64,000 nucleotides of DNA from Planctomycetota bacterium (lineage in GTDB: Bacteria; Planctomycetota; Phycisphaerae; Sedimentisphaerales; Anaerobacaceae): positions 3,347 to 67,346 of the forward strand of contig JBHPGW010000005.1 of NCBI GenBank assembly GCA_042569785.1. Direction: 5' to 3'. The notes below the pieces were generated by a model. That model saw only the letters and a list, made by a program, of their open reading frames with translations. It did no database searches and was not told the origin of the DNA. This document shows positions 1 to 27,968 of the stretch, piece after piece (position 1 is the stretch's first letter; each line of letters opens with the position of its first letter). Position numbers and translations under genes: made by a program.

Positions 1-589
1 ATTCGGTTATCTTAACGTATCTGACGGGCTGTGGTGATTTCTTCCTCTGCTTTATTTTTCCAAATGGATTTTGGCCTTCTTGAAGATAGCCACGGGGGTC
101 AATCGCAAGGTTAAAGATTCGTTTTAGCGTGCGGATATCCTTATTGGCTGTCGGAATCGTCACTCCTGATGCCAAGCGGTGGGCTATAAAAGCTTCTGCT
201 TGTCTGGGCCTAATATTTGTAAGAAATGTTGAACCGTCTATGAACTTTTCAAAGAGCTTGAGAGCTCGAATCTGGTCGCAGAGAGTTGCATAAGCTACTT
301 GGCCAGCCATTACCTTTTTGTGCTCTTTTGCGAAGGCACTGAAGGTAATCTTATCCGGCTTGTCGGGCCTTGCCTGGTTGACATCTGTCTGAAGCTTCCT
401 GGCAAAATAATCGGCAAGCTTTCTGGTCTTAAAACTTCTCGAGTACCTTTTGCCCGCATTGCCAAACCATCTAACTGTCCAGGAATGTCTCCGATATTTT
501 GGCCACTCTGACTTTGGTGCTGGCTTTCCATTTACTTTTGGCACCTTTTCAAGCCATCTGCGATAGATCCCTATTTTCTCTGTTGCCAT
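1..589 (-). CDS. Tyrosine recombinase / phage-type integrase, N-terminal part (gene runs off the left edge)
   Basis: Not on the ORF track because it has no in-window stop. My translation of the minus strand from ATG 589-587 stays open to position 1: MATEKIGIYRRWLEKVPKVNGKPAPKSEWPKYRRHSWTVRWFGNAGKRYSRSFKTRKLADYFARKLQTDVNQARPDKPDKITFSAFAKEHKKVMAGQ...IRPRQAEAFIAHRLASGVTIPTANKDIRTLKRIFNLAIDPRGYL. GGAG lies 7 nt upstream of the ATG. A basic arm-like N-terminus followed by core-binding (SAM-like) helices is typical of integrases. The gene sits directly downstream of an excisionase-like gene. The catalytic domain is outside the window. Confidence 0.65.
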   Translation of the reverse strand, partial: MATEKIGIYRRWLEKVPKVNGKPAPKSEWPKYRRHSWTVRWFGNAGKRYSRSFKTRKLADYFARKLQTDVNQARPDKPDKITFSAFAKEHKKVMAGQVAYATLCDQIRALKLFEKFIDGSTFLTNIRPRQAEAFIAHRLASGVTIPTANKDIRTLKRIFNLAIDPRGYLQEGQNPFGKIKQRKKSPQPVRYVKITE

Positions 590-695: not shown

Positions 696-944
696 TCATG
701 CCGTTTTATTTCTTAAAAAATTCTCAAGCTCAATTTTTAAATACCATACTCTTCTTGCATATTTTGTGGCCTTAAGTTCTCCATGATCTCGCCAGTAATT
801 TAGAGTTCTTTGTGCGGATTTAGGTGTATGGCCAATCTCATTAAGGCGTAAAAACATCGCAGCTTCGACAGGAGTCATTAAATCAGGGAATTTCTGCGGT
901 TTTTTTGGCCATAGAGTTTTTGTATGTGATGATTTGTTATTCAT
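696..944 (-). CDS. Excisionase/AlpA-type helix-turn-helix DNA-binding protein
   Basis: 82 aa. The stretch LMTPVEAAMFLRLNEIGHTPKSAQRTLNYWRDHGELKATKYARRVWYLKIELENFL has the excisionase-family HTH-plus-wing layout. It is co-directional with, and just upstream of, the integrase. Confidence 0.65.
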   Translation of the reverse strand: MNNKSSHTKTLWPKKPQKFPDLMTPVEAAMFLRLNEIGHTPKSAQRTLNYWRDHGELKATKYARRVWYLKIELENFLRNKTA

Positions 945-1529: not shown

Positions 1530-2471
1530 TTAAAGCCAGACGATTCCAGCGTTATCCTTTTTGATTTCGATAATATCTTTTTCCTTTAATCCTGAGGGGT
1601 ATTGCAAAAATCTCAGTTTGCTGATGTCGTAGTATTTCCGGACACTTCGTTGTACATTTTTGATTAAACGCACTACATAATCTGACCAGTTTTGCCTTGT
1701 GCGAATATTCCTGATAGCAGCAGCTTCTATATGGTAGCCCTCGGCTTCAAGTGCCTGCTGTGTTAGTATCAGACCTCTGCCTCGCGGATTGACGGCTTCG
1801 GCAAAAACTTCTTCGACGCCGCAGTCAACTGCAAATTTAACCAATTCGTCGATTTGGGCAGGTGAGTCCGCGACCGAAGGTAAGATCGGACAGAACATTC
1901 CATAGGTTCGCAATCCTTGTTCGTGGGCTTGCCTAACAGTTTCCATTCGCTCTTCGATGCTGGATGCATTTGGCTCAATTATCTTGATGCGATTGCTCTT
2001 ATCCGGTGTAGCTGTGATGCTTAAGCCAACAAGTACCCGGTCAGCATGTTTTTCGATAAGGTCGAAATCTTTTCTTACGGCGGCGTTTTTGGTTAAGATC
2101 CTAACCGTCCAGTCGGGCTCTGAAAGAATCGCCTCCAGACATTTTCTGCCAAGATCATGTTCCTGTGCTTCAGGTGACCATGCATCTACAGTTGTGCAGA
2201 GTTGAACCATCGCTCTTTTCCTGATCTTGCGGGCATCACGAGCCACCCGTTGAGGGGTGCTGGGATCGACAATTGCGTAGCCATTATCAAATGCCGATAC
2301 GCCTAATTCTTTAAATGCGTGGTGGACTCTGAGCATTGCACCTGTCGAGCAGTATGTGCATGCGTGTCCGCATTTGAGGCCACTATTGACGGCGAATTGA
2401 GCAAGACCTTTTTTCTCGAATTCCTTTGTTCGACTGATACCATTCTTTAATTCCCATTCGTAAGTTTTCAT
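1530..2471 (-). CDS. Radical SAM enzyme, SplB / 'DNA repair photolyase' (COG1533)-like
   Basis: The track ORF is 1530..2516. I prefer the ATG at 2471 (MKTYEWELK), which has AGGAG 8 nt upstream. GLKCGHACTYCS is a CX3CX2C cluster motif near the N-terminus. The overall layout resembles the SplB-like radical SAM group. Confidence 0.7.
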   Translation of the reverse strand: MKTYEWELKNGISRTKEFEKKGLAQFAVNSGLKCGHACTYCSTGAMLRVHHAFKELGVSAFDNGYAIVDPSTPQRVARDARKIRKRAMVQLCTTVDAWSPEAQEHDLGRKCLEAILSEPDWTVRILTKNAAVRKDFDLIEKHADRVLVGLSITATPDKSNRIKIIEPNASSIEERMETVRQAHEQGLRTYGMFCPILPSVADSPAQIDELVKFAVDCGVEEVFAEAVNPRGRGLILTQQALEAEGYHIEAAAIRNIRTRQNWSDYVVRLIKNVQRSVRKYYDISKLRFLQYPSGLKEKDIIEIKKDNAGIVWL

Positions 2472-2554
2472 AATTATACTCCTATGATTTAAATAATTAT
2501 TTGACAACAATTTCATTGTTATTGAGCAGGTTTAACACAGTATTTTTACAATAA

Positions 2555-3016
2555 TTAGACATCTTTTTTGCGCCCGTTAGAAAAATATTTGTATAATTTG
2601 TGGCTGATTATTCCATCGTCGGCATCTGAAGGTATCCCTTCCGGATATATGCTATTGATGGCATCTTTAACCATATCAGGTTTTACCGTCAGCCCCAGTT
2701 GCTTTAAGGCTTGTGTAAACTCCTGACATTTGTGGTATGAAGGGCACTGAATACTTCGGTTTTGTCTTTGTCGTGGGGCGTTGAAGACAACCGGCTCACC
2801 GTCATAGCCGATACCCGTTCTTCGAATTTCGAGGCACTTTTGCTGCATATCGGGAGTATAAAACGGGCGATTAGAACGACCGCAGCGTTCCGGTTTTGGA
2901 AAAACGCCTCTGTTCTGGAGCTGGTAGAATCTTGCCCTGGATAGTTTTAGTCTTGTAACCAGCTCTTTAATAGTACATATCCCTTTGATATTATTGTCTG
3001 ATAAATTTTCCATCAT
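2555..3016 (-). CDS. HTH DNA-binding protein (AlpA/excisionase-like N-terminal HTH)
   Basis: 153 aa. CTIKELVTRLKLSRARFYQLQNRGVFPKPE is an AlpA/MerR-like HTH. Its start codon overlaps the RuvB-like stop by 1 nt (both at 3016). Confidence 0.5.
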   Translation of the reverse strand: MMENLSDNNIKGICTIKELVTRLKLSRARFYQLQNRGVFPKPERCGRSNRPFYTPDMQQKCLEIRRTGIGYDGEPVVFNAPRQRQNRSIQCPSYHKCQEFTQALKQLGLTVKPDMVKDAINSIYPEGIPSDADDGIISHKLYKYFSNGRKKDV

Positions 3017-4017
3017 TATTCTCCATCATTTAAACAAAATTTAGTGTTTTCAATATGCCCTCTGCCTTTTTCCGTAATTTCTCTGACAGAGGATTTGCCC
3101 TTGATGACAAAACCTTCTTTAAGCAAATACGGCTCAATCACTCTCTGTATTGTCAAGGTCGGTAGGGATAATCTTGAACTCAATATGCCTAACGCTGATG
3201 GGCCACAATCATATAATACCTTAAGATAAGCCCTGTCTAAGTACTCCAGCCCCAATTCGTCAATCTGTAAATGGCGAAAAGCTTCATTTACATCGTCGAG
3301 CATAATCATATTACGATCATGGCTTTTGGCTACATGCCAACACATTTGAAGATTCTTATGAAGAGCCTGTCGGGGATTTCCTTTGGCTCTTTGTGCAACA
3401 GTTCGCACAATTTCATCTGATTCGCACTGCCAATTCAATGCTTCTATCCTTTGACGTACGATTCCAACAAGGTCGTCCAACAGATAGTCCTTAAATCTAC
3501 AGTCGATCCTCATCCTACTTCTCAATGCGTCCAGAAGCATATGTTCATGCGTCGTTGCCATTATCAACGTAAAGTTAGCAAGTGGTATTGTATGGTAACG
3601 GTATGGCCCGGCAGGTACGCGCAAAGTTCGCTCAGAAAGAGTTGTTAATAAAACAAGCTGGGTTTTGGAATTCATTCCATGTGCTTCGTCAATAAATATT
3701 GTTGTGTTATCATCAGCACTGAGGAATGTTGAGTATAATTCCGCCTTGGCGTTCATTGTTACACCGTTAGTCTCAATCAGATGCAGATTCCCAAGCTCAG
3801 CGTGAACAGCTTTCGCTGTTATTGTTTTACCCCGTCCACTTGGACCATAAAAAGCAACTGGCCCAAAAGATGGATCAGCATTTTTAGATTCTGATCGACT
3901 ATTGAAATGTGCACTTATATGCACATTCAATTTATTTATAACCTGGGGCTGACCGTGAATATGGGATAAGCTAGTTAATTTAACCTGGTTGACATCCACT
4001 CCAACTTTTTTTTCCAT
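3016..4017 (-). CDS. RuvB-like AAA+ ATPase (stand-alone paralog, no ruvA/ruvC nearby)
   Basis: 333 aa, alignable by eye with E. coli RuvB over its full length. Matches: IHGQPQV (cf. VGQPQV); Walker A GPSGRGKT; Walker B IFIDEAHGM; ATTHEHMLLDALRSRM (cf. ATTRAGSLTSPLRDRF); RAKGNPRQA (cf. RARGTPRIA); C-terminal wing VIEPYLLKEGFVIKGKSSVREITEKG (cf. LEPYLIQQGFLQRTPRGR). Confidence 0.8.
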   Translation of the reverse strand: MEKKVGVDVNQVKLTSLSHIHGQPQVINKLNVHISAHFNSRSESKNADPSFGPVAFYGPSGRGKTITAKAVHAELGNLHLIETNGVTMNAKAELYSTFLSADDNTTIFIDEAHGMNSKTQLVLLTTLSERTLRVPAGPYRYHTIPLANFTLIMATTHEHMLLDALRSRMRIDCRFKDYLLDDLVGIVRQRIEALNWQCESDEIVRTVAQRAKGNPRQALHKNLQMCWHVAKSHDRNMIMLDDVNEAFRHLQIDELGLEYLDRAYLKVLYDCGPSALGILSSRLSLPTLTIQRVIEPYLLKEGFVIKGKSSVREITEKGRGHIENTKFCLNDGE

Positions 4018-4059: not shown

Positions 4060-6897
4060 TTAACTTTCGCTACGCCTTTTGTCCAACGGCATTCGTCTGA
4101 TGTATGGCATAAGCGCATCAGCCGTTTCGCGAGTTTTGACAAAAGGCTTTTTACCAAGCTGAACTGAAAGTTCACCGTTAGTAAGAGCATCACCATAGAT
4201 ATAAGCGTCAAGCGATGAGATTAACTGTTGTGGCTCTGCGGCCAGCTTTTTCACAAAAGAACGGTATAATCGCACAAGCAATGGGTAATTGTCGCCAACA
4301 TTGCCGACGATTTCTTCCAGATCTGCCCCAAGATATATGTTGTCAAATGGCTGTCCATTTAGCTCATATCCTCTATGAGTTTTTTTTACACATCCGGATG
4401 CCAATCCCATCGCCACTGCGGCGTGTTTTTCATGTATTGAGCAACTCGCCGGGGGGAGCAAAGCAATGATTGGATCTGCGCCGAGCTTGGCACGAGCTTC
4501 AAAGCTTTGCGGCATGTGCCACAATTTGGAGGTGTCGTTAATTAACCTGTCCATCGAAATCCGACACCGCTGCTGAAAGAATACGATTGCATTGGAATCG
4601 TTTAGTTCGGCAATCTGCCATTCACCGTTTCGAGGGTCAATTTCATTGGCTGTTTTGACTATCCACTCACCCACGGATCTATCTTTGACTGCTATGAACT
4701 TTATTGTTGGTATTATCTCATCTGCCTCGCCGGTAATCCTTAATCTGCCGTTACTCTCACGTAAGCATTGTGCGATCAGGTCTTTCAATTCAGCAGGCGA
4801 TCTGCGGCATTCTTTGAAAACGTCAATAGCATTAAGGGCGGACAAATGCCGGTGAGCCATATCGATACAGTATTCAAGCAGAGTTTCCTTGATGTCATTT
4901 AGATTACGATGGTTAAAGGCGATAAGGTTTTTGTAATGGCCCTGAAATTCACTAAAGACTTTCTCGGATACCTTTTCTTCACCATCCTCATTATCAACTA
5001 CCATTTCAAACTTCTGTATGATAAAGCCGGGAGTTGCCAGTTCCTTGCCTACAGAGACTTTTAATACGGGATTAAGATTCTGAAGCCGGTTTGCTTCGAT
5101 GCCGACATCCCTATCAACAATCATTATATTGCCTGTAAGTTTATGCATCTGAGACAGTTGTTCAGTTAGGAATTCCTGAAGTAATGGATAATACTCATTG
5201 GCCAGGATTACCCTTGCCACAATTTCAAAGCGGTTGCGGACAGCTGATTCCGTGTAAACTGGGAATATTCGCCCTATCTGCTTTTTCATCGAAAAACAGA
5301 AAAACCGCCAAAACCAGAACTTGCCCTTTAATTTGTTTAGAATATCCCTGGCATGACCGAGCATATCATCGATGGATTTTTTCTTGGACTGTACACGTTC
5401 CAGCTTTTTATTATTAGCTTTTTTGAAGGCTTCTGTTTTCTCTATAAAGGTTTCAATAAACTGTGTCGCCTTTGAGAGACCGTCGCGGTCCTGCAGGAGG
5501 ATTAACACTTTGTTGCCAATCGCTTTAGTCGAATCTGTAGAAAACTTCTCAAATTCCCTGTACATTTGCGGTTTAAGACGCTGTGGCATCTCAACATCAA
5601 GCGTATATGAACTTGCATTACCAAGTTCGCAGCAATGATTAAAACCCCAGCCATGACCACAGCGCTGACGAAATACCGCGATGCCATATTCAGAGGCGTT
5701 CGCATTGCCATAGCCACTTAAGCAATGAAGCCGCCTGCAAGCCAAATGCTTGGTTTCCGTCTCAGCTATTGCCAGTTCTGCGGCGACTATGTCAGCTCCT
5801 TTTACAGCCTGCGGCTGTTTTTTGTTTATAAGCAGTTTCTTCAGGAATAGCTCCACCAGCTTATTGGCTACACAACAAATAATGCGAGGCAGGTCCAGAT
5901 GTATGTTTGAATAACCCATCGTTGACACAAAACGCTGGCCGCCCAATTCGTCCTTTATCCAGGCCTCTTCGATATCGACGGCTTTTTCCTGGATTGCTCT
6001 GCCTAACGGTGTATGAAAGAGGTGAAAGATATGCTGCGCCGCCTGTGAAATTAGGTTGTCAAGGTTATCAAAGCCTCCGTGATTATTCGTATCTGATATT
6101 AGAATAAGCGAGTCACAGAGTGGCTGCTGCATTGTGTGCTCTTTGTTAATGTCACTGTATTGACCGACTAAATATGCCTGAAGCTCTCTACAGATCATCT
6201 CCTGGTTCCGAGCTGCTGTTTCCTTATCAATCGGTTCAATGCTGCCCATGCACATTCCTAATACAACGATTCTGACAGGTAGCTTCAGTTCGTTAGCTTC
6301 TTGGCGAATGTTTTTTAACAATTCGATCAATGTGCCGGTGCCAAAACCACCCAGAAGAGACAGGCAAACTGCTGCAGTGATAGGCATATTTACCGCGTTT
6401 TTGTCTTCGGACTTGTCTAAAACCTGGCGCTGTTGCTGGTAATCTCTGCAATTACGCAAAATTTTACGGACTCGTTTGCGTGTTCTGTTTATATTCAATT
6501 TCAATAATCCGTGGCCAGTTCGGCCATTACCGCCGGTACCGTTATTGTCTTTGGATACTCCCGGCTTCCTGAACCAGTTCGCTTCCATTGGCCAAAGCAA
6601 ACCGGCTCGCTCAGCTTTTTCCAGGCTTTCGGCGTCTGGTAAGGTAACAGGCATGAACTCATTTGGCCCTAAAGTCATCTTGTCCATATCACTGTCAGCC
6701 ATTGGGACGAGGAAATTAGGTATTACGCCCTCAGCATCAAAGCCTAACATCTGCAGTTTCTGTTGTGGCGTCAGCATGCCATAGACAGATTCAAGTTTAC
6801 GTACAGCCATTTCTACCTTTTCGCCGGTGCTGCCGGTAAATAAAGCAACACCGACAGATGCGGTTTCGGTTATTGATTCATATAGTTTTGTTTTCAT
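4060..6897 (-). CDS. Large tubulin/FtsZ-superfamily GTPase-like protein (Tubulin_2-type) with long uncharacterised C-terminal region
   Basis: 945 aa. The N-terminal ~300 aa carries GVALFTGSTGEKV, NNGTGGNGRTGHG and the tubulin-signature-like SLLGGFGTGT (nt ~6327-6360), followed by LILISDTNNHGG. The ATG at 6897 has AAGGAG 11 nt upstream and lies 20 nt inside the upstream gene. Confidence 0.6.
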   Translation of the reverse strand: MKTKLYESITETASVGVALFTGSTGEKVEMAVRKLESVYGMLTPQQKLQMLGFDAEGVIPNFLVPMADSDMDKMTLGPNEFMPVTLPDAESLEKAERAGLLWPMEANWFRKPGVSKDNNGTGGNGRTGHGLLKLNINRTRKRVRKILRNCRDYQQQRQVLDKSEDKNAVNMPITAAVCLSLLGGFGTGTLIELLKNIRQEANELKLPVRIVVLGMCMGSIEPIDKETAARNQEMICRELQAYLVGQYSDINKEHTMQQPLCDSLILISDTNNHGGFDNLDNLISQAAQHIFHLFHTPLGRAIQEKAVDIEEAWIKDELGGQRFVSTMGYSNIHLDLPRIICCVANKLVELFLKKLLINKKQPQAVKGADIVAAELAIAETETKHLACRRLHCLSGYGNANASEYGIAVFRQRCGHGWGFNHCCELGNASSYTLDVEMPQRLKPQMYREFEKFSTDSTKAIGNKVLILLQDRDGLSKATQFIETFIEKTEAFKKANNKKLERVQSKKKSIDDMLGHARDILNKLKGKFWFWRFFCFSMKKQIGRIFPVYTESAVRNRFEIVARVILANEYYPLLQEFLTEQLSQMHKLTGNIMIVDRDVGIEANRLQNLNPVLKVSVGKELATPGFIIQKFEMVVDNEDGEEKVSEKVFSEFQGHYKNLIAFNHRNLNDIKETLLEYCIDMAHRHLSALNAIDVFKECRRSPAELKDLIAQCLRESNGRLRITGEADEIIPTIKFIAVKDRSVGEWIVKTANEIDPRNGEWQIAELNDSNAIVFFQQRCRISMDRLINDTSKLWHMPQSFEARAKLGADPIIALLPPASCSIHEKHAAVAMGLASGCVKKTHRGYELNGQPFDNIYLGADLEEIVGNVGDNYPLLVRLYRSFVKKLAAEPQQLISSLDAYIYGDALTNGELSVQLGKKPFVKTRETADALMPYIRRMPLDKRRSES

Positions 6898-8164
6898 CGC
6901 TATTTAACTCCTTATCACTTTCCAAGGGTTCAGATAAAACAGTTATAGTTACCTCATTGACCAACTCTATATCTACCGGCAAATCGAGGACGCTTTTACG
7001 GCGGTGGGTTAATTCGAGACCGTTAATGATAATTGGAGAGCAAGCCAAATTTTGTATTTTAAGCTCTCTCCTGCTTTTGAATATTCTAACGTGTTTATCT
7101 TCTACCGTTTCATCATCAATGTAGATGGTGCTTCCAAGACCGCTGCCAATGAGTATTTCACCGAGAGCATCCAATGACCCAAGATCGTACTTATGGTCGC
7201 CATAAAAAGCGATTAAATGAAACGGCATGTTGTCATCTGTTTGGTCTGTAGCTTTTGAGTTAGTTGCTGATTTTCCTTTTGAAAATACGATTAGAGACAT
7301 AGCACCAAATATCACCAGTATCGCGATAGCAGGCCAAATCATTTTCGAACGTTTCCGAATATTCTTTTTGCCGCCTTCTTTGCTCCGTTCTTTGGCTTTA
7401 AGTTCTTCTGTTTTCGAATTATCGATGTCATGAACAGGTGGTTTAGTAAGCTCGGCTTCATCAAGTTTTTTGTCATCAGACAGCGGCGGCAAAGGTTTTT
7501 GTGTTTTGGAGTCGATAGCCTGTTCGATTGGAACCTGATATGTCCGGAATTTTTCAAACCAGCCGGCAATATCTGAATTTTCAATAATAGCGATATCAAA
7601 CTCATCTCTATCACCGGCAAGCAGCAGATTCGGGTTGGCTGTCTCTGCAACTGTCATAAGAAGGTTAACGCCGCTAAGTTTGCATACTGCTGCCTTATGC
7701 CTGATATCAGCCACTTTCCAGTCACTGTAACGCCCATCTGATATTACGAGGCAATATTTGCTGGTATATGGACGATTATTCAGTTCGCCATAGGCAAGCT
7801 GTAATGCATCAGCGATATTAGCCCGACACCACCATTTGTATTTAAGATCCATAAGTTTTTGATTGAGCCTGGTTCGCTGGGCTGCACTGTCAGGATCAAT
7901 CCGGCAGATTGTTTCGATAACATTTTTATCCTTATGTGCTGAAACAATAATCAGCTCGTCTCCAGCTCCAAGCAATGATATTGCCTGACGGGCAAGGATC
8001 AGTGACTGCCTCCATGTTATATGTCCCACATCGCTGCAGTCGATTATGATGGCTAAAACCAGATGCTCGTCAGTACCAATCGCCCCCTTCCCTGAAGCGT
8101 TAGCAGTAAATGGCACCAAAACCATCATGATTATTATCGATATTTCAAAAAACAGCTTTTTCAT
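6878..8164 (-). CDS. Signal peptide - vWA-like domain - TM helix - FHA-like domain protein
   Basis: The track ORF starts at a TTG (8194). The ATG at 8164 gives MKKLFFEISIIIMMVLVPFTANA, a signal peptide. vWA-like elements are LAIIIDCSDVG (degenerate MIDAS) and YCLVISDGRY. The TM helix is WPAIAILVIFGAMSLIVF. The C-terminal FHA-like stretch is ILIGSGLGSTIYIDDETVEDKHVRIF...SPIIINGLEL. Confidence 0.6.
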   Translation of the reverse strand: MKKLFFEISIIIMMVLVPFTANASGKGAIGTDEHLVLAIIIDCSDVGHITWRQSLILARQAISLLGAGDELIIVSAHKDKNVIETICRIDPDSAAQRTRLNQKLMDLKYKWWCRANIADALQLAYGELNNRPYTSKYCLVISDGRYSDWKVADIRHKAAVCKLSGVNLLMTVAETANPNLLLAGDRDEFDIAIIENSDIAGWFEKFRTYQVPIEQAIDSKTQKPLPPLSDDKKLDEAELTKPPVHDIDNSKTEELKAKERSKEGGKKNIRKRSKMIWPAIAILVIFGAMSLIVFSKGKSATNSKATDQTDDNMPFHLIAFYGDHKYDLGSLDALGEILIGSGLGSTIYIDDETVEDKHVRIFKSRRELKIQNLACSPIIINGLELTHRRKSVLDLPVDIELVNEVTITVLSEPLESDKELNSDENKTI

Positions 8165-8198
8165 AATCTTCCCTTTTCGCCCATTTACGGGCAACTAA

Positions 8199-8411
8199 TT
8201 AGTGTTTGTTTCTTTTGATAATTTTGAAAACTCCGACAACCCCGAGGCATATTACTGCCAAGGAGGCTAAGCCGAATAGGGGGTCATTTTGATGGTATCG
8301 AAGGTTCTCAACACTTTTTGAAATTAATTCAAACAGTTTTGATTTGATTATCAGTATGACGACCATAACTAACAGAAATAGCGGAACTATATTTTCCCAT
8401 CGGATTCTCAT
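8199..8411 (-). CDS. Small two-helix membrane protein
   Basis: 70 aa with two hydrophobic helices (IVPLFLLVMVVILII and LFGLASLAVICLGVVGVF). ATG start with a strong AAGGAGAG SD about 9 nt upstream. Confidence 0.45.
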   Translation of the reverse strand: MRIRWENIVPLFLLVMVVILIIKSKLFELISKSVENLRYHQNDPLFGLASLAVICLGVVGVFKIIKRNKH

Positions 8412-8844
8412 CTTTAGTTCTCTCCTTTTGAATTTTTTGATGTGACAATATCATTTTTTTCTTTGGCAGTCTTTTCAACCGACTATATGTTTCAAGCTCG
8501 CTTTGAAGCTGCCCCAAAAGCAGGATTTTGATAGGTTCACCACCTGGGCTTAGCTGCAGCGGTTTTAGTTTACGTGTGATCTCATTTTTCACTTTTTTAG
8601 TAGGGACAACGACCCATAATGGCACATTTACTAACACCGCCTTTCTTGCGTTGTCCGTGGCATGTCGTAATGTGGTTTCAACCTCAAATCCCAAACTAAC
8701 GTGGTCTTGTTGCGCAAATACATCAAAAAAGGTAGTTACACCGTTTTGGACAAAGCTGTATTCAGTGTCAGCAAAAGCAAAGAACCTGCTCGCGGTCATT
8801 TTGACGTCCATCGCTATAGAATTATGTAGAGTATCTCCTCGCAT
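8329..8844 (-). CDS. Hypothetical protein; possible PD-(D/E)xK-like nuclease fold (weak)
   Basis: 171 aa, starting 6 nt after the HerA-like stop. FFDVFAQQDHVSLGFEVETT gives a D-x12-E-x-E pattern, followed by VNVPLWVVVP. The last ~27 codons overlap the next gene. The fold assignment is a guess. Confidence 0.35.
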   Translation of the reverse strand: MRGDTLHNSIAMDVKMTASRFFAFADTEYSFVQNGVTTFFDVFAQQDHVSLGFEVETTLRHATDNARKAVLVNVPLWVVVPTKKVKNEITRKLKPLQLSPGGEPIKILLLGQLQSELETYSRLKRLPKKKMILSHQKIQKERTKDENPMGKYSSAISVSYGRHTDNQIKTV

Positions 8845-8850
8845 ATTTGT

Positions 8851-10545
8851 TCATTCCTTATGGTCAGCAACTATTTTTATCGCTGATTCAAGTGGTTCAA
8901 TTAATATCGTGCTTCGCCCGCGGCTGCCGGATTCTATTTTGTGTTCCCTGATCAAACCTTTCTCAATAAGGCCGGGACGAGCTCGCTGAACTGTATTAGG
9001 GCTTATGCCAGCGAGTTTGGCGTATTCACTGGAGGGATGCATTGGATGTTCGACTACTGCCAGGATGAATTTGAATTCACTCTGGCTCAAATCACCGTAC
9101 TTTTTACCAAGTGATTCACTCCTTAGTTCAATATTTTCAATCCCGGACCAGTTTGAAAATTCAGTTGCAGGTATAACCTTTAGAGATTCCAGTGGCTTTA
9201 GACTGTCATCGGCATCTTTGTCTGTTACGGGCTGTAGCTGGTCTCGTTTAAGTTCTGGTACCTCGAACAAAAACGGGTATCGCCAATTACCTTCACCAAC
9301 CTGTCCGGCAAAAAGTCCCGGCTTAAGATGGTGTGTACACCAGATAATCTGTTCCTGCGTCAACCCTATAAAACCACCGGCGGCTTTGTAGTCCGGGACA
9401 GAACCACATCGTCCGACTATCTTTGTTGATGTTATGCTTGGTAGGCGAACCGAAAGATTGTCAGGACCCAGGACAGATATACTAAAGCCAATACCTGCGC
9501 CTCTGACAAGGCCAGCCATATCTGTAATGGCGTTACCATGATAGCCGGAGGTTTCTTTTTTCTGGGAAAAAGTCCGTTGACCTTCATCAAAGCTTATCCA
9601 TAAATCCATCCCCTGGTTCGATACACCTCTGGCTATCCGTGAACAAAACTCCGATGCTACAGGGTAATTTTGGAGCAGGTCCTGGACAGTTTCAGGCAAA
9701 CCCGCCAGTTCAAAGACTAAATGCGATTTAGCCAATTTATCAATATCCCAACCTTTATGATAGGCGAGTACTTGCGGTCCAAGTGTTAGCAGCACCGCTT
9801 CGAGATTGTCGATGATAGCCTGGCGTGCTTGGGGATTAGCATGCCTGTTGTAGCGAATAGCCTCAAACAAGTGGAAAAGAGTGGGATACATTTCACCGCC
9901 GTTGAATACACCATGCTTTTTGTAGAGCTTTATGATCGTACTTTTTAGTAAAACAGATGCCCTTGGAGGCAGGTTTAAAACATTGACCAAAAGATCGGCA
10001 GCGACTGAGGCATACTCGTTTGGATCTACACCAAAAGGTACCTGTAGTGGATTTACTTTAAACCGTCTCCCTCTGATTATTATCAGGTCAATGTCTTGTT
10101 TTGCTAAGTGCTTTCTGAGAAATCGAAATTCTCTCTTCCTCAAATCAACCAGCCACATACCGCGGACGTGAGGGGCGATCTGGATTGCATAAAAGATAGT
10201 CAACGTAGTTTTTCCCGAACCAGTATTAGCTATGATTAGCGTGCCCGCATTCAAGTACTGAATGAATGCCTTTATCGGGTTTCCATATTCATCGGCGCCG
10301 ATAATAAAATCGCCTTTACGAAGCTTGGACGGTAGGAAAGGGGAACCACTCCGAGCGATCCTTCTCTGTGCATTAGTAACCCTTTTTACAATTTGGCTGA
10401 TAATGAATTTGTCCTGTATCCCATGGCCAAAGCATCTAAGAAGCTGCCTACCGGCAAAATCCTCAAATACACCAAGTTGCTTACCTATTTCTATCTTTTT
10501 TTCTAACTCAGTTAAGGCGTCATCATTTTTCATTTGTTTTTCCAT
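8851..10545 (-). CDS. HerA/FtsK-superfamily P-loop ATPase with C-terminal winged-helix DNA-binding domain
   Basis: The track ORF (to 10887) has a 114-aa N-terminal extension that overlaps the Cys-rich gene in another frame. The ATG at 10545 (MEKQMKNDD) gives a 23-nt overlap. Motifs: Walker A IIANTGSGKTT; VNPL; Walker B-like LWISFDEGQ; C-terminal wHTH SEYAKLAGISPNTVQRARPGLIEKGLIRE. Confidence 0.7.
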   Translation of the reverse strand: MEKQMKNDDALTELEKKIEIGKQLGVFEDFAGRQLLRCFGHGIQDKFIISQIVKRVTNAQRRIARSGSPFLPSKLRKGDFIIGADEYGNPIKAFIQYLNAGTLIIANTGSGKTTLTIFYAIQIAPHVRGMWLVDLRKREFRFLRKHLAKQDIDLIIIRGRRFKVNPLQVPFGVDPNEYASVAADLLVNVLNLPPRASVLLKSTIIKLYKKHGVFNGGEMYPTLFHLFEAIRYNRHANPQARQAIIDNLEAVLLTLGPQVLAYHKGWDIDKLAKSHLVFELAGLPETVQDLLQNYPVASEFCSRIARGVSNQGMDLWISFDEGQRTFSQKKETSGYHGNAITDMAGLVRGAGIGFSISVLGPDNLSVRLPSITSTKIVGRCGSVPDYKAAGGFIGLTQEQIIWCTHHLKPGLFAGQVGEGNWRYPFLFEVPELKRDQLQPVTDKDADDSLKPLESLKVIPATEFSNWSGIENIELRSESLGKKYGDLSQSEFKFILAVVEHPMHPSSEYAKLAGISPNTVQRARPGLIEKGLIREHKIESGSRGRSTILIEPLESAIKIVADHKE

Positions 10546-10966
10546 CTTCCTCGACAAACGGTAAAAACAGTGTTTTTCCTGTGGCAATCCAGAGGCTCTT
10601 ACGAACGATATTGCCATGACAACTTCTGCAGAAAGGAATAGTTCGCCCGTCAGGCAATTGAAGGTAATGGGCATGAGCCCTACATAAGGGACTGCCACAG
10701 CCTGAGGGATGGGGATTCTCTGTTCCACCACAATGCTTGTGGCATTTGATACAACTGATGGCCCCGCATTCGCGACACCGGCCACCAACAGAAGAAGTAA
10801 TGCAGCCACAATGGAGGCTTGGAATTTCTTCAAGTTCATAGCTTTCAACACCACCGTCTTCTTCAGATAATTTATGATACTCATCATTAACTCCCAAGAT
10901 ATCTATTTCATCGCTTTGAGGGTTCTTGCTGAATCTTCGACGAAAAATTTTTCTTAAAAATGACAT
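10523..10966 (-). CDS. Cys/His-rich putative zinc-binding protein
   Basis: The track start (10990) is a TTG. The ATG at 10966 (MSFLRKIF) has GGAG 7 nt upstream. The core is CGCITSSVGGRCRECGAISCIKCHKHCGG...GCGSPLCRAHAH...FCRSCH, with several CxxC pairs. Confidence 0.5.
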   Translation of the reverse strand: MSFLRKIFRRRFSKNPQSDEIDILGVNDEYHKLSEEDGGVESYELEEIPSLHCGCITSSVGGRCRECGAISCIKCHKHCGGTENPHPSGCGSPLCRAHAHYLQLPDGRTIPFCRSCHGNIVRKSLWIATGKTLFLPFVEEDGKTNEK

Positions 10967-10983
10967 GTAATTGCTCCGATCTA

Positions 10984-11160
10984 TTACCAAGGAGAATCAA
11001 ATATCACCCGGTTTAACCAGCCGGATAGTCGATATACAAATTTAGCAATAAACCATAAGCTAAATACACTCAGCAATATCAAGTCAAACGCCAGAAATGC
11101 ATACCCAATAAACCTCAAGATATCACCGGCATTGTCAGTAAATTTCTTTTTCCAACTCAT
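10984..11160 (-). CDS. Small single-pass membrane protein (below the ORF-track size cut-off)
   Basis: My own translation: MSWKKKFTDNAGDILRFIGYAFLAFDLILLSVFSLWFIAKFVYRLSGWLNRVIFDSPW (58 aa). ATG at 11160 is preceded by AAGGACAGGAA. It fills the gap between two operon genes. Confidence 0.35.
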   Translation of the reverse strand: MSWKKKFTDNAGDILRFIGYAFLAFDLILLSVFSLWFIAKFVYRLSGWLNRVIFDSPW

Positions 11161-11794: not shown

Positions 11795-14287
11795 ATGAAT
11801 GAAAAGTGGCCAAAATTTAAGATATATGCTGTCATAGATGGAAACAGTTCAGGGCTGTTTGCAAAAAGACAAATGTCTAAACATGCTCACTGGGAAGAAG
11901 CTTACTTTTATCTGACAGGAGGATTGGAACCAACTGAGGAGATTAAAAACGCGTGTAAAGGCAATTGGAGTTTATTAGACAGAGGAGATTATAATGAGGA
12001 TCGGCTTTTAAGGGAGTTGGTAGAATATGCAAAAGCTGCCGACAAAGCCAGTGATATGAAAATGAGTTGCGAGGTTACAGAAAAACATCATGCAGAAAAA
12101 GGCTATCAGGAGACCGTGAATCGTTATTTCGAAAACCCGAAAGGGGATGCGGAAAAACTACCTTTTAAAAAGTTCTTTATTGATGCTCCAGTTTTTAAGA
12201 TGAGTGTTCTAAAAAACGTGCGGGGACAGCATGAAAAAGTTCAGGGAATGGCGGAAGAGTTTGGTGTATTATCTCCACACAACATCGTAGTACGAGATAA
12301 TTTCAAGTATTTACGGCCGATAGAAGATGTGCTGAGAATCAAAGGTAATGAAAAATCAAAGTGGTTTCGAAAAACAGGCCCTTTAGCGGTAGATTTTGAT
12401 ACTGACAAGGTGTATTGTCGCAGAGAACTGCTTGATAAGCTTAAGAGTATGATCCTGAGCAACTCGCTTTCAATTCTTGAGGGTGTTGCTGCAGTAGGAA
12501 AAACAGTGCTTATTCGTCAACTTGCCTATGAACTCTTTCAAGAAAATGAGTTGGAAGTATATTATTTTGATTGTGATTTGAATAGAGGATTTGATCAGGC
12601 TGAGCTTACAAATGAAATCAACACACTGTGCGGTGTATTTATACTGGAAAACATTCATCTTGAAATACGTAAGATTCAGCGGTTATTGGAACAAATCAAA
12701 GAAGATTCAAAAAAACATGTTCTTTTTACAACTAGACCTTCATTCAGGGAGTTTCAATATACAAAAGATAATAGTCTAAATAACCTGGACTTTATAAGGC
12801 TAAAACCTTTTTGTCAGGCAGATGAGATTATAGACCATTTCATGTCGGTTCATCCCAGTGGTTTTTTACCTTCGGAAGTCGTGCAATCCATAAAGGATAT
12901 TGCAAAGGGCAGTTTTTGGCTTATGGCATATGCACTTGAAGGCTATATCAAAAAGTGTGATACTGATGAACCGCGAGCCTGGTTGGTTGAAGGGATAAAG
13001 GAAGACATGGAAGATCTTGAAAAGTTAAACCATGGTTTCCCTGAAGTTTTGGTTGCACTTTCTCCTCTTTATCAAATCGAGATATTGACTGAAGAAGGTT
13101 TCTTAACGAACACCCTGGGCTTTGACTTGAACTTGTTGAATGAACTGGTCAGAAGAGGTGAAATAACGAGACAGGTGAATTTGGATCAGTATGTATTATA
13201 TGGGCTGCCACATTCAGCCTTAGCTAAAGTTTACTGGGAACATGGTAAAAAATACCGTCGGCGAAGAAAACTGCAAAAACCCATTGATTTTATTTACGAG
13301 TATGCTGTATCAGGGGTTCCTAACGGACTGGAAGCGATCGTATTTAAGAATGAAGATGTACGGAATCAACTGTACATGCGAGTTAATGCTGCTGGGAAAA
13401 TGACAGAGGTTATAGAAAATGAGCTGTCCATGAAAGCAGTTAACTTTTGGATTAAAGATTGTGGTTCTTGTTCTATCAATAACCAATTATTGGTGATTCT
13501 AACTAATAAAATTTCGACACATGATGACATCCGTAATGCGGGATATTGTTTTCGTGATTTATATAAAGTTAATCCTAAAGCGGGGCAAAAACTATTTGAC
13601 CACATAGACCTCAAAAAATTGGCGAGTAGATTTAGTAAATCTACACATGTCATGGAGACATCTTCTTTTATTGATTGTTTTAATACCTCTGATCATAATA
13701 TGGCTATAGAGTTTTGTAATCTTCTTGATATAAAGAAACTAGCAAACGTACTGCCAGAAGTGAAGGTCTTCGGATGTATTTGTGCACCAATTTCTATACT
13801 ATTTATGGTGAATGATAGCATGGGATGGGAGTTTTGGAATCTCTTGGATTGGAAAAAACTCATATCAAAGTCAAAACAAATGAAGTACATTGCAATGACT
13901 TGCTGGGGTATTGGGATGGTGTTTTCCTATCAGAAATCTGCAGGTGAAAAACTTTGGAAAATGTTGGATGTTCAAGAGCTGGCAGATGTAGTGGTTAAGC
14001 ATAAAAATCCTCTTCGTATACAGAAGTGCTTTTTTTTCCTAAATTCAATAAAAAATCCCAAACCTATGCGAGAGTTTTTGAATTTACTGGATATTAGCAC
14101 GTTGGCGAATAATTTGAAAAAGTCAAAAAACGAAAATGAAAAAAAAGACTGTGTTTCCTATATCTGCAAAGTAGATAGAAATATTGGCGAAAAGCTTAAA
14201 TCACTGTTAAGTGGTAATTATCAGTTGCCCTATATGCTAGAACACAAGAAAAAGGTGGCAGAGAGAAAGAAAGAAAGACCGGATTGA
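11795..14287 (+). CDS. STAND/NACHT-like P-loop NTPase with C-terminal ~40-aa tandem helical repeats
   Basis: 830 aa. P-loop LEGVAAVGKTVLIRQLAYEL and Walker B-like CGVFILENIH. At least 5 tandem repeats occupy nt ~13589-14215: KLFDHIDLKKLASRF / EFCNLLDIKKLANVL / EFWNLLDWKKLISKS / KLWKMLDVQELADVV / EFLNLLDISTLANNL. The N-terminal ~220 aa matches no family I recognise. Confidence 0.6.
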   Translation: MNEKWPKFKIYAVIDGNSSGLFAKRQMSKHAHWEEAYFYLTGGLEPTEEIKNACKGNWSLLDRGDYNEDRLLRELVEYAKAADKASDMKMSCEVTEKHHAEKGYQETVNRYFENPKGDAEKLPFKKFFIDAPVFKMSVLKNVRGQHEKVQGMAEEFGVLSPHNIVVRDNFKYLRPIEDVLRIKGNEKSKWFRKTGPLAVDFDTDKVYCRRELLDKLKSMILSNSLSILEGVAAVGKTVLIRQLAYELFQENELEVYYFDCDLNRGFDQAELTNEINTLCGVFILENIHLEIRKIQRLLEQIKEDSKKHVLFTTRPSFREFQYTKDNSLNNLDFIRLKPFCQADEIIDHFMSVHPSGFLPSEVVQSIKDIAKGSFWLMAYALEGYIKKCDTDEPRAWLVEGIKEDMEDLEKLNHGFPEVLVALSPLYQIEILTEEGFLTNTLGFDLNLLNELVRRGEITRQVNLDQYVLYGLPHSALAKVYWEHGKKYRRRRKLQKPIDFIYEYAVSGVPNGLEAIVFKNEDVRNQLYMRVNAAGKMTEVIENELSMKAVNFWIKDCGSCSINNQLLVILTNKISTHDDIRNAGYCFRDLYKVNPKAGQKLFDHIDLKKLASRFSKSTHVMETSSFIDCFNTSDHNMAIEFCNLLDIKKLANVLPEVKVFGCICAPISILFMVNDSMGWEFWNLLDWKKLISKSKQMKYIAMTCWGIGMVFSYQKSAGEKLWKMLDVQELADVVVKHKNPLRIQKCFFFLNSIKNPKPMREFLNLLDISTLANNLKKSKNENEKKDCVSYICKVDRNIGEKLKSLLSGNYQLPYMLEHKKKVAERKKERPD

Positions 14288-14583
14288 TTCCGGCCTTTAA
14301 AAAAATCAAGGAATTCTTATAGGCACTTCAAAAACATCTTCTTCGCTTTCTTTCTAACGGATTTTTGATGTTATCAATCAGCTTTAATGCCTGACGCTTG
14401 GTTATTTTTTCAGGTATCTCTGCTCCAAGCCTTTTCAAGTATGCGGTCTGGTTTTCTGTTGCTGGGTAACTGAGCAAGCAAAGTGCCTTTTATGGCTTTG
14501 AGGGCCGAGACATTTTTTTAACAAAATCACAAAGTTTATAAACCCCACTTTCTTATTATTACCACTGGAGAGTTACAGTACAA

Positions 14584-15144
14584 ATGTTTCCAAATAAAAC
14601 ATACGAGCTTCGAAAATTGTATTTTGAGCAGAGTAAGTACTCTGCAAAACCAATTAAGCCTGAGTATCCGCTATTATTACAGTGGCCTGAAAAAGGTTAT
14701 TTTAAAAAATTAAAGCCCGATGTTGATCTGCTGCAGAGGGCATTGAAACCTGACAAAAATATCGAGGAAAAAAGTATATCGGAACAAATATTTGGTAATG
14801 AGATAAAACAGCAATCTATTGACCTTCATCATATAGCGAATTTATTTTACGAGCGTTGCAGGCTTCACAAAAACCATATCTCAGAAATCGATAGAAGGCA
14901 TATTGAGGCCCAGGAAAAACTGTTTGGAGTTCAAATTAATAATGCATCAGATAAAGGCAAACGTCTTTCAACTCTGGAAGGCCAGTTGTCACAGCTTGAT
15001 CAACAGAGAAGAGAAGAAGAACTTGCGTTTTGGAAGGATACTGTAGAGCTAAGAGGAACGTTATTTGAAAACTCTGGTGACTACAGAGCCGCTAAGCAAA
15101 GAGAATTTATTTTCTCTGATGTGGAGGCTGGCTATGGCAGATAA
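14584..15144 (+). CDS. Coiled-coil hypothetical protein, partner of the second HerA-like ATPase
   Basis: 186 aa. Heptad-like region LSTLEGQLSQLDQQRREEELAFWKD. GGAG lies upstream of the ATG. Its stop overlaps the next gene's start (ATGGCAGATAA). Confidence 0.45.
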   Translation: MFPNKTYELRKLYFEQSKYSAKPIKPEYPLLLQWPEKGYFKKLKPDVDLLQRALKPDKNIEEKSISEQIFGNEIKQQSIDLHHIANLFYERCRLHKNHISEIDRRHIEAQEKLFGVQINNASDKGKRLSTLEGQLSQLDQQRREEELAFWKDTVELRGTLFENSGDYRAAKQREFIFSDVEAGYGR

Positions 15145-19991: not shown

Positions 19992-20651
19992 TCACCCCAC
20001 GTCACTAACATTTAACTCCGAAGCCAGAAGATTTAATTGGATATCTGGATCAATTGGTAATAGGCGTAAGTACTTTGTGAATTGAGCAAGCATGAAGCCG
20101 GCTGCTATGTTGGCACAGTATATGGTTGTTTTGGCAGTACAAGGGCCCGTGTGAGCTTGCTGGGCGGTGAATAGGGTCTGAGGGTAGTGTTGGCGGCTTG
20201 GTTCATCACAGGCGGTTATAACTCGCAAAACTTCTGCTGACATTCTACCATCTACGAAGAAGTTGGCCTTATCTTTCACAGCATCCCATATGTGCTTTCT
20301 AGCGACAATTGAATCCACACAGCAAAATACCGTATTGCCCAGAGGTATTGACCGTTTGAATTTATCCAGCACGATCTCAACTTGCAGCTCGTGATTGATC
20401 TCTCGGCAGAACTCGGCTGTTACGTCAACCTTGGGGCGTTTTAGGTCTTTGTGCATATAACCTTGTGTTGCCAGGTTACTGATATCCACGTGATCAAAGT
20501 CGATAAGTTGTAAAACAGGTATGCCGATTGCGGTTAGTTGGATTGCAACCTGTCTGCCAATGGCTCCTATGCCAATCACTGTAGCCTTGCAATCTAGTAT
20601 TCGCTGTCTTGGTACAATATCAGCTTGTCTTGAGTATCTTTCACTGCTCAT
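19992..20651 (-). CDS. ThiF/MoeB-family E1-like adenylyltransferase (minimal, adenylation domain only)
   Basis: RYSRQ...ATVIGIGAIGRQVAIQL (GxGxxG), LIDFDHVDISNLATQGY, LKRPKVDV. Preferred start is the ATG at 20651 (MSSERYSRQ), which has GAGG 6 nt upstream and an 11-nt overlap with the JAB stop. Confidence 0.8.
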   Translation of the reverse strand: MSSERYSRQADIVPRQRILDCKATVIGIGAIGRQVAIQLTAIGIPVLQLIDFDHVDISNLATQGYMHKDLKRPKVDVTAEFCREINHELQVEIVLDKFKRSIPLGNTVFCCVDSIVARKHIWDAVKDKANFFVDGRMSAEVLRVITACDEPSRQHYPQTLFTAQQAHTGPCTAKTTIYCANIAAGFMLAQFTKYLRLLPIDPDIQLNLLASELNVSDVG

Positions 20652-26524: not shown

Positions 26525-26543
26525 TCAAAAAAACCGGGCAAAG

Positions 26544-27821: not shown

Positions 27822-27968
27822 CTTCTTTAATTACCTGACAAAGTTAGTATAACCCAAGAAACAAATATCGTATTTGAAACAATTAGTTTATAACATGAGA
27901 GTAAACAATGCAAGCCGAATATACGTCCTCATTTGGCTGAGCTTTTCCGGGCGATTGTAATTAAATAG

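Follow-up and report, generated by a model that had tools for sequence, protein, structure and literature searches.

Operons that pair an FtsZ-like gene (FtsZl1) with a gene of a vWA protein were predicted computationally by Makarova and Koonin (2010, PMC2875224). The FtsZl1 proteins comprise about 1000 amino acid residues with an FtsZ-like N-terminal domain, a long coiled coil and a helical C-terminal domain; kinases, a P-loop GTPase and OmpA proteins are frequently linked to these operons without being obligatory (PMC2875224). Pfam Tubulin_2 (PF13809) is the model for this FtsZ-like family. Kaur, Burroughs, Iyer and Aravind (2020, PMC7159879) described conflict systems centred on GAP1-N2 GTPases, in which tubulin and membrane vWA components take part. 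The gene pair considered below is located in a 64,000-nucleotide stretch (contig JBHPGW010000005.1, assembly GCA_042569785.1; hereafter the window) of a Planctomycetota metagenome-assembled genome. It comprises a tubulin-like gene (4060–6897, minus strand) and, directly upstream of it, a partner gene (6878–8164, minus strand) for a protein with a vWA domain, a predicted transmembrane (TM) helix and an FHA-like domain. The pair is a member of the FtsZl1–vWA class, and the core of the finding is already known, having been described in 2010 and again in 2020. The earlier note on this DNA, written from the sequence without database searches, had named the work of Makarova and Koonin as a possible connection, and this proved correct.

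The locus is similar to the FtsZl1 operons in the architecture of about 1000 residues (945 residues here), in the operon with a vWA protein, which often has a signal peptide or TM segment, in its presence in Planctomycetes and in being a non-division gene. Several properties are different. Neighbouring genes were scanned as open reading frames (ORFs) between 1 and 29 kb of the window, and no kinase, P-loop GTPase or OmpA gene was present among them. The partner has a predicted cytoplasmic FHA-like domain, whereas the main text of the 2010 paper names neither FHA domains nor integrases or mobile elements. The genes appear to reside here in an island of the tRNA-integrating kind, in the company of genes for a HerA/FtsK-like ATPase and a mini-protein with two TM segments. 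Finally, the clade is a borderline case for the Pfam model, and a candidate T7 loop can be made out in it, whereas the region T6–H7 could not be aligned in the paper (PMC2875224).

The pair belongs to a larger module shared by integrative islands of Planctomycetota (Phycisphaerae or Sedimentisphaerales). This module on a tRNA-integrating island, the 70-residue two-TM gene product and the independent exchange of the vWA domain were not part of the earlier note. No description of a signal peptide–vWA–TM–FHA partner or of a mobile-island setting was found in the literature searched, nor one of the linked ATPase and mini-protein, of vWA cassette exchange or of the candidate T7 loop.

The tubulin-like protein

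The 945-residue protein, translated from an ATG start, is a divergent member of the FtsZl1/Tubulin_2 branch of the FtsZ–tubulin superfamily. It matches Tubulin_2 over residues 22–349 (54.5 bits at a cutoff of 27, E = 1.5e-14). In the protein a GTPase-type N-terminal domain is followed by a long helical part and a further domain at the C terminus, all encoded on the minus strand. The FtsZ/tubulin-type GTPase domain (residues 16–357; 5827–6852) is supported by conservation counts, hhalign and Foldseek. The helical region (residues 358–690; 4828–5826), with three long helices within residues 419–606, is modelled by AlphaFold2 at a predicted local distance difference test score (pLDDT) of 85–93. 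The C-terminal mixed alpha/beta domain (residues 691–945; 4063–4827) is recognized by conservation, its model being partly of low confidence, and belongs to no known family. The remaining 600 residues or so outside the GTPase domain have no Pfam match, in agreement with the absence of recognizable domains noticed from the sequence.

The four tubulin-like motifs quoted in the earlier note are all present: GVALFTGSTGEKV (residues 16–28), NNGTGGNGRTGHG (residues 118–130), SLLGGFGTGT (residues 180–189) and LILISDTNNHGG (residues 264–275). The T4 signature GGGTG(S/T)G occurs as GGFGTGT (residues 183–189) and is conserved. Candidate loops are T1 (G22-S-T-G), T2 (D54), T3 (G120–G128), T4 (G183–T189), T6 (N271) and T7 (D308/E311), the assignments of T6 and T7 being tentative readings of the alignment. 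Residue conservation was counted in 45 sequences, the most distant of which are 15% identical. G22 and D54 are invariant (45/45), followed by G183 (44/45), G218 (43/45), G184 (42/45), N271 (41/45) and G188 (40/45). Position 308 is occupied by D in 37 and by N in 8 of the sequences, so that D or N is found in all 45.

The clade profile was aligned by hhalign with the FtsZ of E. coli and B. subtilis (sequences entered by hand) at E = 3.4e-5 and a probability of 72%, and this, together with the Pfam score, bears out the proposed Tubulin_2-type identity. The significant stretch includes T3 (GTGGNGRTG over GAGANPEVG), strand S4 and T4 (GGFGTGT over GGGTGTG of FtsZ). A second alignment, which is not significant (E = 0.24), places DSLILISDTNN over DSLITIPND of FtsZ (T6), and AVDIEE falls there close to NVDFAD of FtsZ (T7). 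In the window protein EKAVDIEE (residues 304–311) comes after a long helix (residues 279–307), and the D308/E311 region is a candidate T7 acidic loop. A relative, P0196, matches Tubulin_2 at 2.6e-54 and Tubulin (PF00091) at 6e-6, the latter below the cutoff, and the window protein itself has no direct PF00091 match. Several clade members score below the Tubulin_2 threshold, and the clade is therefore at the edge of this model. Comparison of the family profile with solved structures by sequence gave no tubulin or FtsZ match.

The AlphaFold2 model of the protein has a mean pLDDT of 70, with low confidence in the N-terminal domain (about 45–80). Foldseek matches of this low-pLDDT domain are almost all tubulin, CetZ/CetZ2 and TubZ at probabilities of 0.9–1.0 (TubZ, 2xka, at 0.94–0.96), but their E values are weak (0.02–0.08, none at or below 0.001) and their template-modelling scores low (0.24–0.33). 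The matches are consistent with the tubulin/FtsZ fold expected in the earlier note but do not decide it. The long helices of the model (residues 419–467, 473–524 and 535–606), after which the mixed C-terminal domain follows, gave non-specific Foldseek matches only (alpha-pore-forming toxins, OPA1, SMC-like proteins) at probabilities of 0.1–0.6, which is usual for any long helical bundle. A Foldseek search against viral structures returned only weak phage tubulin/FtsZ matches and generic coiled-coil matches. Neither the tubulin-like protein nor the partner was matched in PADLOC-DB 2.0 or PHROGs.

The protein is rare. A profile search of 1.84 billion representative proteins yielded 235 relatives, about 100 of which have the full architecture of approximately 940 residues including the C-terminal domain; the close homologues number 28, and one locus was matched among GTDB species genomes. 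A third homologue search, with the 45-sequence alignment, returned mostly the same close family, with two new proteins among the matches listed. No relatives were found in IMG/VR viral contigs, phage records or plasmid records. A phage or plasmid origin was rejected because these scans were empty for the tubulin-like protein.

The partner protein and the gene junction

The partner gene encodes 428 residues, with a signal peptide, a vWA domain, a linker, a TM helix and an FHA-like domain recognized by annotation, model, Foldseek and hydropathy. This composition had been read from the sequence, and hydropathy, AlphaFold2 and Foldseek agree on it. The longer ORF described initially (6878–8194, minus strand, 438 residues from TTG) is present, but NCBI and all homologues use the ATG at 8164. 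The parts of the protein, encoded likewise on the minus strand, are a signal peptide or signal anchor (residues 1–24; 8093–8164) with an ANA/S cleavage-like site, found by a hydropathy scan and conserved in the alignment; a predicted periplasmic vWA domain (residues 35–208; 7541–8062) found by Foldseek; a disordered linker (residues 209–272); a TM helix (residues 273–298; 7271–7348) supported by hydropathy and the model; and a predicted cytoplasmic FHA-like domain (residues 315–413; 6926–7222) found by Foldseek.

In the AlphaFold2 model residues 35–208 form an alpha/beta domain (pLDDT 80–95) and residues 315–413 a beta-sandwich (pLDDT 86–93). Foldseek matches the former to vWA domains (anthrax toxin receptor, VWF A1) at E = 1.4e-7 to 1e-6 and template-modelling scores up to 0.81. 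The latter is matched to the FHA domains of ArnA, CT664, Rv0020c, DgcB and OdhI at E of about 1e-6 and scores of 0.73–0.82, the FHA domain of ArnA (5a8i) being the top match. The cytoplasmic-domain model of YscD is matched weakly. In Pfam the window protein is below the cutoffs of VWA (20.7 bits, cutoff 23.8) and FHA (14.8 bits, cutoff 20.7), but homologues pass, namely the partner from locus L022 for VWA_2 (35.0 bits, cutoff 27) and the TM–FHA homologue from locus L021 for FHA (24.0 bits, cutoff 20.7).

Both functional sites are degenerate, as was suspected from the sequence. The DxSxS of the metal ion-dependent adhesion site (MIDAS) is not intact, its third position being lost (D42-C-S44-D-V46). 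The site varies within the family, and distant homologues keep it in intact form (DSSGS in L022, DTSPS in L021). In the FHA-like domain the phosphothreonine-binding residues IGR and SRxH are replaced by IGSG and EDKH with only the His retained, and phosphopeptide binding is therefore not expected. The ORFs scanned between 1 and 29 kb revealed neither a kinase nor a phosphatase domain, which agrees with the absence of a Ser/Thr kinase or phosphatase stated previously. Kinase-regulated FHA signalling was rejected because no kinase was found and the binding residues are lost. Since the protein has two hydrophobic segments (residues 1–24 and 273–298), the predicted topology is vWA outside, in the periplasm, and FHA inside, in the cytoplasm. 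It is supported by L021 and L022, where the positive charges are found next to the TM helix on its FHA side.

The stop of the partner gene overlaps the start of the tubulin-like gene by 20 nt (6878–6897, minus strand), as seen in the junction sequence, and the AAGGAG at 6907–6912 is 10 nt upstream of the tubulin-like ATG (6897). The position of this ATG inside the partner gene had been described correctly, and the overlap is conserved.

Conservation of the gene pair

Related loci (referred to by L-numbers) were all retrieved via the tubulin-like or the partner protein; the named relatives are metagenome genomes of Phycisphaerae or Sedimentisphaerales. Twenty of these loci contain sequence upstream of the tubulin-like gene (L015 is a fragment only), and in 20/20 a vWA/FHA gene is located directly upstream. 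The conserved neighbour anticipated in the earlier note was accordingly recovered. The pair was observed at tubulin-like identities to the window of 87, 81, 78, 58, 51, 50, 49, 44, 26, 25 and 22%. The genes usually overlap by 17–20 nt, as seen in L001, L002, L016, L020, L021 and L022. In L021 the partner is split into a signal peptide–vWA gene and a TM–FHA gene. The pairing of the tubulin-like gene with its partner is thereby confirmed as real, and the overlap as conserved.

Mosaic evolution

Identity to the window was compared over 13 loci with the window as the reference. The FHA-like domain (41–86%) and three segments of the tubulin-like protein (41–94%) co-vary (r = 0.96). The identity of the HerA/FtsK-like ATPase encoded upstream tracks neither the tubulin-like protein nor the FHA-like domain (r = 0.46–0.49, not significant). 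The vWA domain is at most 28% identical or undetectable in loci in which the tubulin-like protein is 85–94% identical. In a second group of partners, vWA is 65–81% identical and FHA only 26–36% identical; L018 and L019 of this group combine vWA domains 66–68% identical with tubulin-like proteins 26% identical to those of the window. Because vWA identity is uncoupled from FHA and tubulin-like identity, the window partner is a chimera whose breakpoint falls within the linker/TM region, and its outer domain has moved between deeply diverged lineages.

A similar gap is observed between the two sides of the islands. The radical S-adenosylmethionine (SAM) protein encoded on the integration side is 88–92% identical in L010 (6222–7187) and 62% identical in L021 (16636–17586), the tubulin-like proteins of the same loci being 48% and 22% identical; recombination therefore takes place between the module of the integration side and that of the tubulin side.

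Mobile-island setting

The window begins with the N-terminal part of a tyrosine integrase (1–589, minus strand, ATG at 589), recognized from the translation and by Phage_int_SAM_5 (25 bits). The gene runs off the window edge; the window holds only the integrase N-terminus, and the insertion site lies beyond its left edge. Full integrases or recombinases are found in L006, L007, L010, L016, L017, L018 and L021, and in each of these seven loci the integrase or serine recombinase adjoins a tRNA gene (Met, Phe, Phe, Arg, Pro, Arg and Phe). The L016 island has a serine recombinase in place of the tyrosine integrase. The loci are a family of tRNA-targeting integrative islands, as shown in these seven related loci. 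Direct repeats of attachment (att) sites of at least 12–14 nt were not found around the tRNA genes in the sequence covered; the far island ends are probably outside it.

The locus is not a dcw/fts division locus, as stated in the earlier note, and housekeeping FtsZ was rejected because of the mobile-island context and the rarity of the protein.

A short integrase-family ORF of 241 residues (24097–24822, plus strand) is a possible right boundary of the island. Beyond 24995 a cluster mostly on one strand begins, and its first four genes (24995–29186) match families of glycosyl- and sugar transferases (PMT_2, Bac_transf and Glycos_transf_1).

Conserved module and neighbouring genes

Synteny comparison revealed a tightly packed same-strand block around the pair. 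The order of the module is: Zn-ribbon protein, HerA/FtsK-like ATPase with a winged helix-turn-helix (wHTH), small conserved protein, two-TM mini-protein, partner and tubulin-like protein. It is usually followed by genes of a RuvB-like AAA+ protein, a helix-turn-helix (HTH) protein, a radical SAM enzyme, an excisionase-like HTH protein and an integrase. The genes of the ATPase, small protein, mini-protein, partner and tubulin-like protein constitute the unit that persists across loci. A promoter/terminator scan over 1–11.8 kb gave no more sites than shuffled sequence and none between the block genes on the coding strand.

The first gene of the block (10523–10990, minus strand) encodes the Cys-rich Zn-ribbon protein, 35–69% identical in L001, L002, L004, L006 and L007. 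The next (8851–10533, minus strand) encodes the HerA/FtsK-superfamily P-loop ATPase with Walker A GSGKT and a C-terminal winged HTH (HTH_36), 42–60% identical across loci; this ATPase weakly matches the mad8, HerA (PADLOC) and VirB4 models and has a single weak partial match, to an archaeal plasmid, among phage and plasmid records. Its start is probably M119 (position 10533) of a 678-residue ORF (8851–10887): codons 1–118 share their DNA with the Zn-ribbon gene, which is read in another frame, and the corresponding Met is the start in homologues. In other loci the wHTH is a separate gene. In L016 (5854–7439) the ATPase is reduced to a 164-residue fragment beside an inserted Helicase_C gene, and in L022 it is displaced, the pair being intact in both.

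The small conserved protein (8329–8844, minus strand) has a core of about 130 residues with D41, E54-x-E56 and K68 invariant in the alignment. From the spacing of these residues it could possibly be a PD-(D/E)xK nuclease. Profile comparison with solved structures gave no supporting match, and the nuclease idea therefore derives from the motif alone. The non-conserved tail of its ORF overlaps the 70-residue gene, and the two are fused in frame in L002. The 70-residue mini-protein (8199–8411, minus strand), encoded directly upstream of the partner by an ORF with its own AAGGAG, has two hydrophobic segments taken as TM helices; tblastn matches to it were obtained in 10 loci, and the distant L018, L019 and L021 have analogues.

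Downstream of the pair, profile models identify a RuvB-like AAA+ ATPase with a winged helix (3016–4017, minus strand), a paralogue scoring below the RuvB equivalog cutoff. The gene is downstream of the tubulin-like gene in 8 loci and absent from L002, L018, L020, L021 and L022. Profile and synteny pair it with the gene of a 153-residue HTH protein (2555–3016, minus strand) that has a weak AlpA-like match. Profiles of the ATPase of the block and of this HTH protein compared with solved structures gave nothing informative. The radical SAM protein (1530–2516, minus strand) belongs to the Rv2578c/PA0069 group in NCBIfam (rSAM_Rv2578c, 86 bits; 'radical SAM mobile pair protein B', 62 bits; all below cutoffs). 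An 82-residue excisionase-like HTH protein (696–944, minus strand) precedes the integrase in L007, L010 and L021.

On the other side of the block, a divergently transcribed set (11795–16801, plus strand) encodes a STAND NTPase (830 residues), a 186-residue protein and a HerA/DUF87 ATPase (578 residues). HerA and STAND homologues also occur in L007, and the set looks like defence-type cargo. An ORC/Cdc6-like AAA+ protein with a C-terminal winged helix (17198–18337, minus strand) may initiate replication of the island or be a further NTPase sensor. Further on (19992–22360, minus strand), a ThiF (E1-like) protein, a JAB-domain protein and a Cys-rich protein of 351 residues are encoded. A ThiF gene replaces the RuvB-like gene directly 3' of the tubulin-like gene in L021 (12835–13755, with a 4-nt overlap) and in L022 (12854–13783); these positions hint at a link of the module with ubiquitin-like conjugation enzymes. 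The small proteins encoded after ThiF in L021 and L022 have no C-terminal Gly-Gly, and there is therefore no sign of a ubiquitin-like substrate in these two loci. In L019 a DnaE-type Pol III alpha gene (5605–8823) is located after the tubulin-like gene, and an ArdC-N antirestriction gene (14480–15307) is present within the L021 island.

Possible roles of the module

The role is the least certain part of this analysis. The module could be an island-borne envelope surveillance or exclusion (conflict) system, a tentative reading to which a probability of about 0.4 is assigned. It is favoured by the shuffling of the outer domain between lineages, by the much faster evolution of the module than of the integration genes and by the neighbouring STAND/NACHT NTPases, HerA-type ATPases and ThiF/JAB genes. 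It is also favoured by Kaur et al. (2020, PMC7159879), who place tubulin and membrane-vWA neighbourhoods among conflict systems. In the mechanism proposed, the FHA-like domain would act independently of phosphorylation as a dock, by which the tubulin-like GTPase is tethered or nucleated at the inner membrane face. The GTPase would self-assemble in a GTP-dependent manner via the conserved T1–T4 loops and the candidate T7 acidic loop (D308/E311). Specificity would be set by the exchangeable vWA domain, which would bind an external ligand in the periplasm, and the module could cooperate with the ATPase, and perhaps with the nuclease-like protein, against incoming DNA or invaders.

A more elaborate version is somewhat unlikely. 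In it, a tubulin-based immune or exclusion machine would span the envelope, signalling from the vWA receptor through FHA to GTP-dependent assembly, and would block or process incoming DNA together with the two-TM protein and the ATPase. If true, integrative islands would have spread tubulin-based immunity or exclusion in a phylum from which FtsZ is reported to be absent.

A number of points weigh against a conflict system and the steps proposed for it. The PADLOC search was empty, and no biochemical or genetic study of the FtsZl1 class was found in the literature searched. As regards the GTPase, the N-terminal model is of low confidence, the Foldseek E values are weak, the family profile found no tubulin or FtsZ among solved structures, and AVDIEE is placed near the FtsZ T7 loop in a non-significant alignment. 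As regards the partner, a KKNIRKRSK charge cluster is located on the predicted periplasmic side of the TM helix, and the juxtamembrane charges of the window protein are ambiguous. The co-variation of the FHA-like domain with the tubulin-like protein could reflect linkage rather than protein contact, because the two are adjacent DNA and linkage alone could yield the correlation; the loci compared are, moreover, not phylogenetically independent. A HerA/FtsK-type ATPase with a wHTH is suitable for DNA transfer as well as for defence. Since every locus was retrieved via the tubulin-like or the partner protein, core and cargo of the islands are not decidable from this set, and a conflict role is not separable from DNA transfer.

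DNA transfer or maintenance of the island is the main rival and seems somewhat unlikely. The ATPase would pump island DNA, the two membrane proteins would constitute the envelope part, the vWA domain would be an adhesin for recipient specificity, and the tubulin-like filament would position or drive the complex. Such a machine would be comparable to the single-protein FtsK-like transfer of actinomycete integrative elements. The module does adjoin an excisionase-like gene and an integrase wherever the island sequence is long enough, a DNA-binding wHTH is part of the ATPase, a Zn-ribbon gene is next to it, and the combination of ATPase, two-TM protein, partner and tubulin-like gene recurs in a sublineage at 26% tubulin-like identity. 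An FHA-like domain with a TM segment and an FtsK-type ATPase is also a theme of type VII secretion ATPases, to which the weak YscD match may be added, and the ArdC-N antirestriction gene of L021 is typical of transferred DNA. However, genes for a relaxase, for type IV secretion or for other conjugation functions were not seen among the ORFs scanned, there were no matches in plasmid or phage collections, and the pair stays intact where the ATPase is truncated (L016) or displaced (L022). The far faster divergence of the tubulin-like module compared with the integration module would likewise be unusual for core transfer machinery. Segregation of the excised island by a TubZ-like (type III) partition system is highly improbable, although TubZ is among the Foldseek matches (2xka, probability 0.94–0.96), the locus is on a mobile element and plasmid and phage tubulin homologues are known to segregate DNA (cited in PMC2875224). 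The conserved partner is a membrane vWA–FHA protein and not a TubR-type DNA-binding adaptor, and it was for this absence of an adaptor that TubZ-like partition was rejected. In addition, the tubulin-like protein is twice as large as TubZ and its helical and C-terminal part is conserved, plasmid or phage homologues are lacking, and no centromere-like repeat array was noticed, no search having been aimed at one.

The remaining alternatives concern the host cell and the mode of action. A host cytoskeleton for membrane remodelling or vesicle formation, as first proposed for FtsZl1–vWA operons (PMC2875224), would agree with the architecture and the vWA partnership of the published family, with the membrane nature of the partner and mini-protein and with the weak Foldseek matches of the helical region to OPA1 and alpha-pore-forming toxins. 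These matches are of low probability (0.1–0.6) and typical of long helical bundles, the genes reside in an integrase- and tRNA-linked island and not in a chromosomal housekeeping context, the ectodomain is shuffled between lineages, and the clade is very rare (235 of 1.84 billion representatives, one GTDB species-genome match), all of which makes this role quite improbable. The tubulin-like protein could also be a non-polymerising GTP switch, that is, a nucleotide-dependent oligomerisation switch or scaffold like STAND NTPases rather than a cytomotive filament. Makarova and Koonin raised this possibility, being unable to find T6–H7 or a tubulin-type C-terminal domain (PMC2875224), many clade members are below the Tubulin_2 threshold, and Kaur et al. 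(PMC7159879) regard tubulin components as multimeric assembly analogues of STAND proteins. The presence of D or N at position 308 after a long helix in 45/45 sequences, and the resemblance of AVDIEE to NVDFAD of the FtsZ T7 loop, suggest subunit-activated hydrolysis instead, and a switch of this kind appears unlikely.

Comparison with known systems

Within the tubulin superfamily, FtsZl1/Tubulin_2 proteins rank with the most divergent, and an experimental study was not found for them 16 years after they had been described. The locus is a compact, well-delimited version of the system, with a co-varying FHA domain that would serve for docking, a candidate T7 loop and an outer domain swapped like a specificity cassette, and it offers a defined set of four to six co-inherited genes. 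All members are from uncultured Planctomycetota, and tests would need heterologous expression. The island setting argues against housekeeping membrane remodelling for this clade and points to conflicts or to the element's own biology.

The GAP1-N2 systems of Kaur et al. (PMC7159879) are similar in that a tubulin domain with a coiled-coil/helical C-terminus is genetically linked to a TM protein whose vWA domain is extracellular. They are defined by GAP1-N2 GTPases and FNIII-repeat proteins and are found in Firmicutes and Actinobacteria, and neither an FHA partner nor an integrative-island context is described for them in the sections used. No GAP1-N2 GTPase or FNIII match was obtained in the ORFs of the block or in the others scanned in the window.

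The FHA-like domain connects the partner with two further systems: the FHA domain of ArnA (5a8i), from the ArnA/ArnB pair of Sulfolobus, is its top fold match, and the cytoplasmic-domain model of YscD is matched weakly. FHA domains working with vWA domains, and FHA-like domains beside a TM helix and an FtsK-type ATPase (YscD, EssC), are known themes. ArnA (FHA) and ArnB (vWA) are separate cytoplasmic proteins regulated by kinases. In the partner, by contrast, vWA and FHA are predicted to be on opposite membrane sides of one protein, the phosphothreonine-binding and MIDAS residues are degenerate, and no kinase was found in the ORFs scanned.

TubZ/TubR and PhuZ resemble the present system as tubulin-superfamily GTPases of mobile elements, and TubZ and phage tubulins are among the fold matches. 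They are about half the size, without the helical and C-terminal regions, and work with DNA-binding adaptors and not with a membrane vWA–FHA protein. A role of the present system in conflicts or in the biology of the island itself would, if confirmed, be the third known for tubulin homologues on mobile elements, the others being the segregation of plasmids and the positioning of the phage nucleus.

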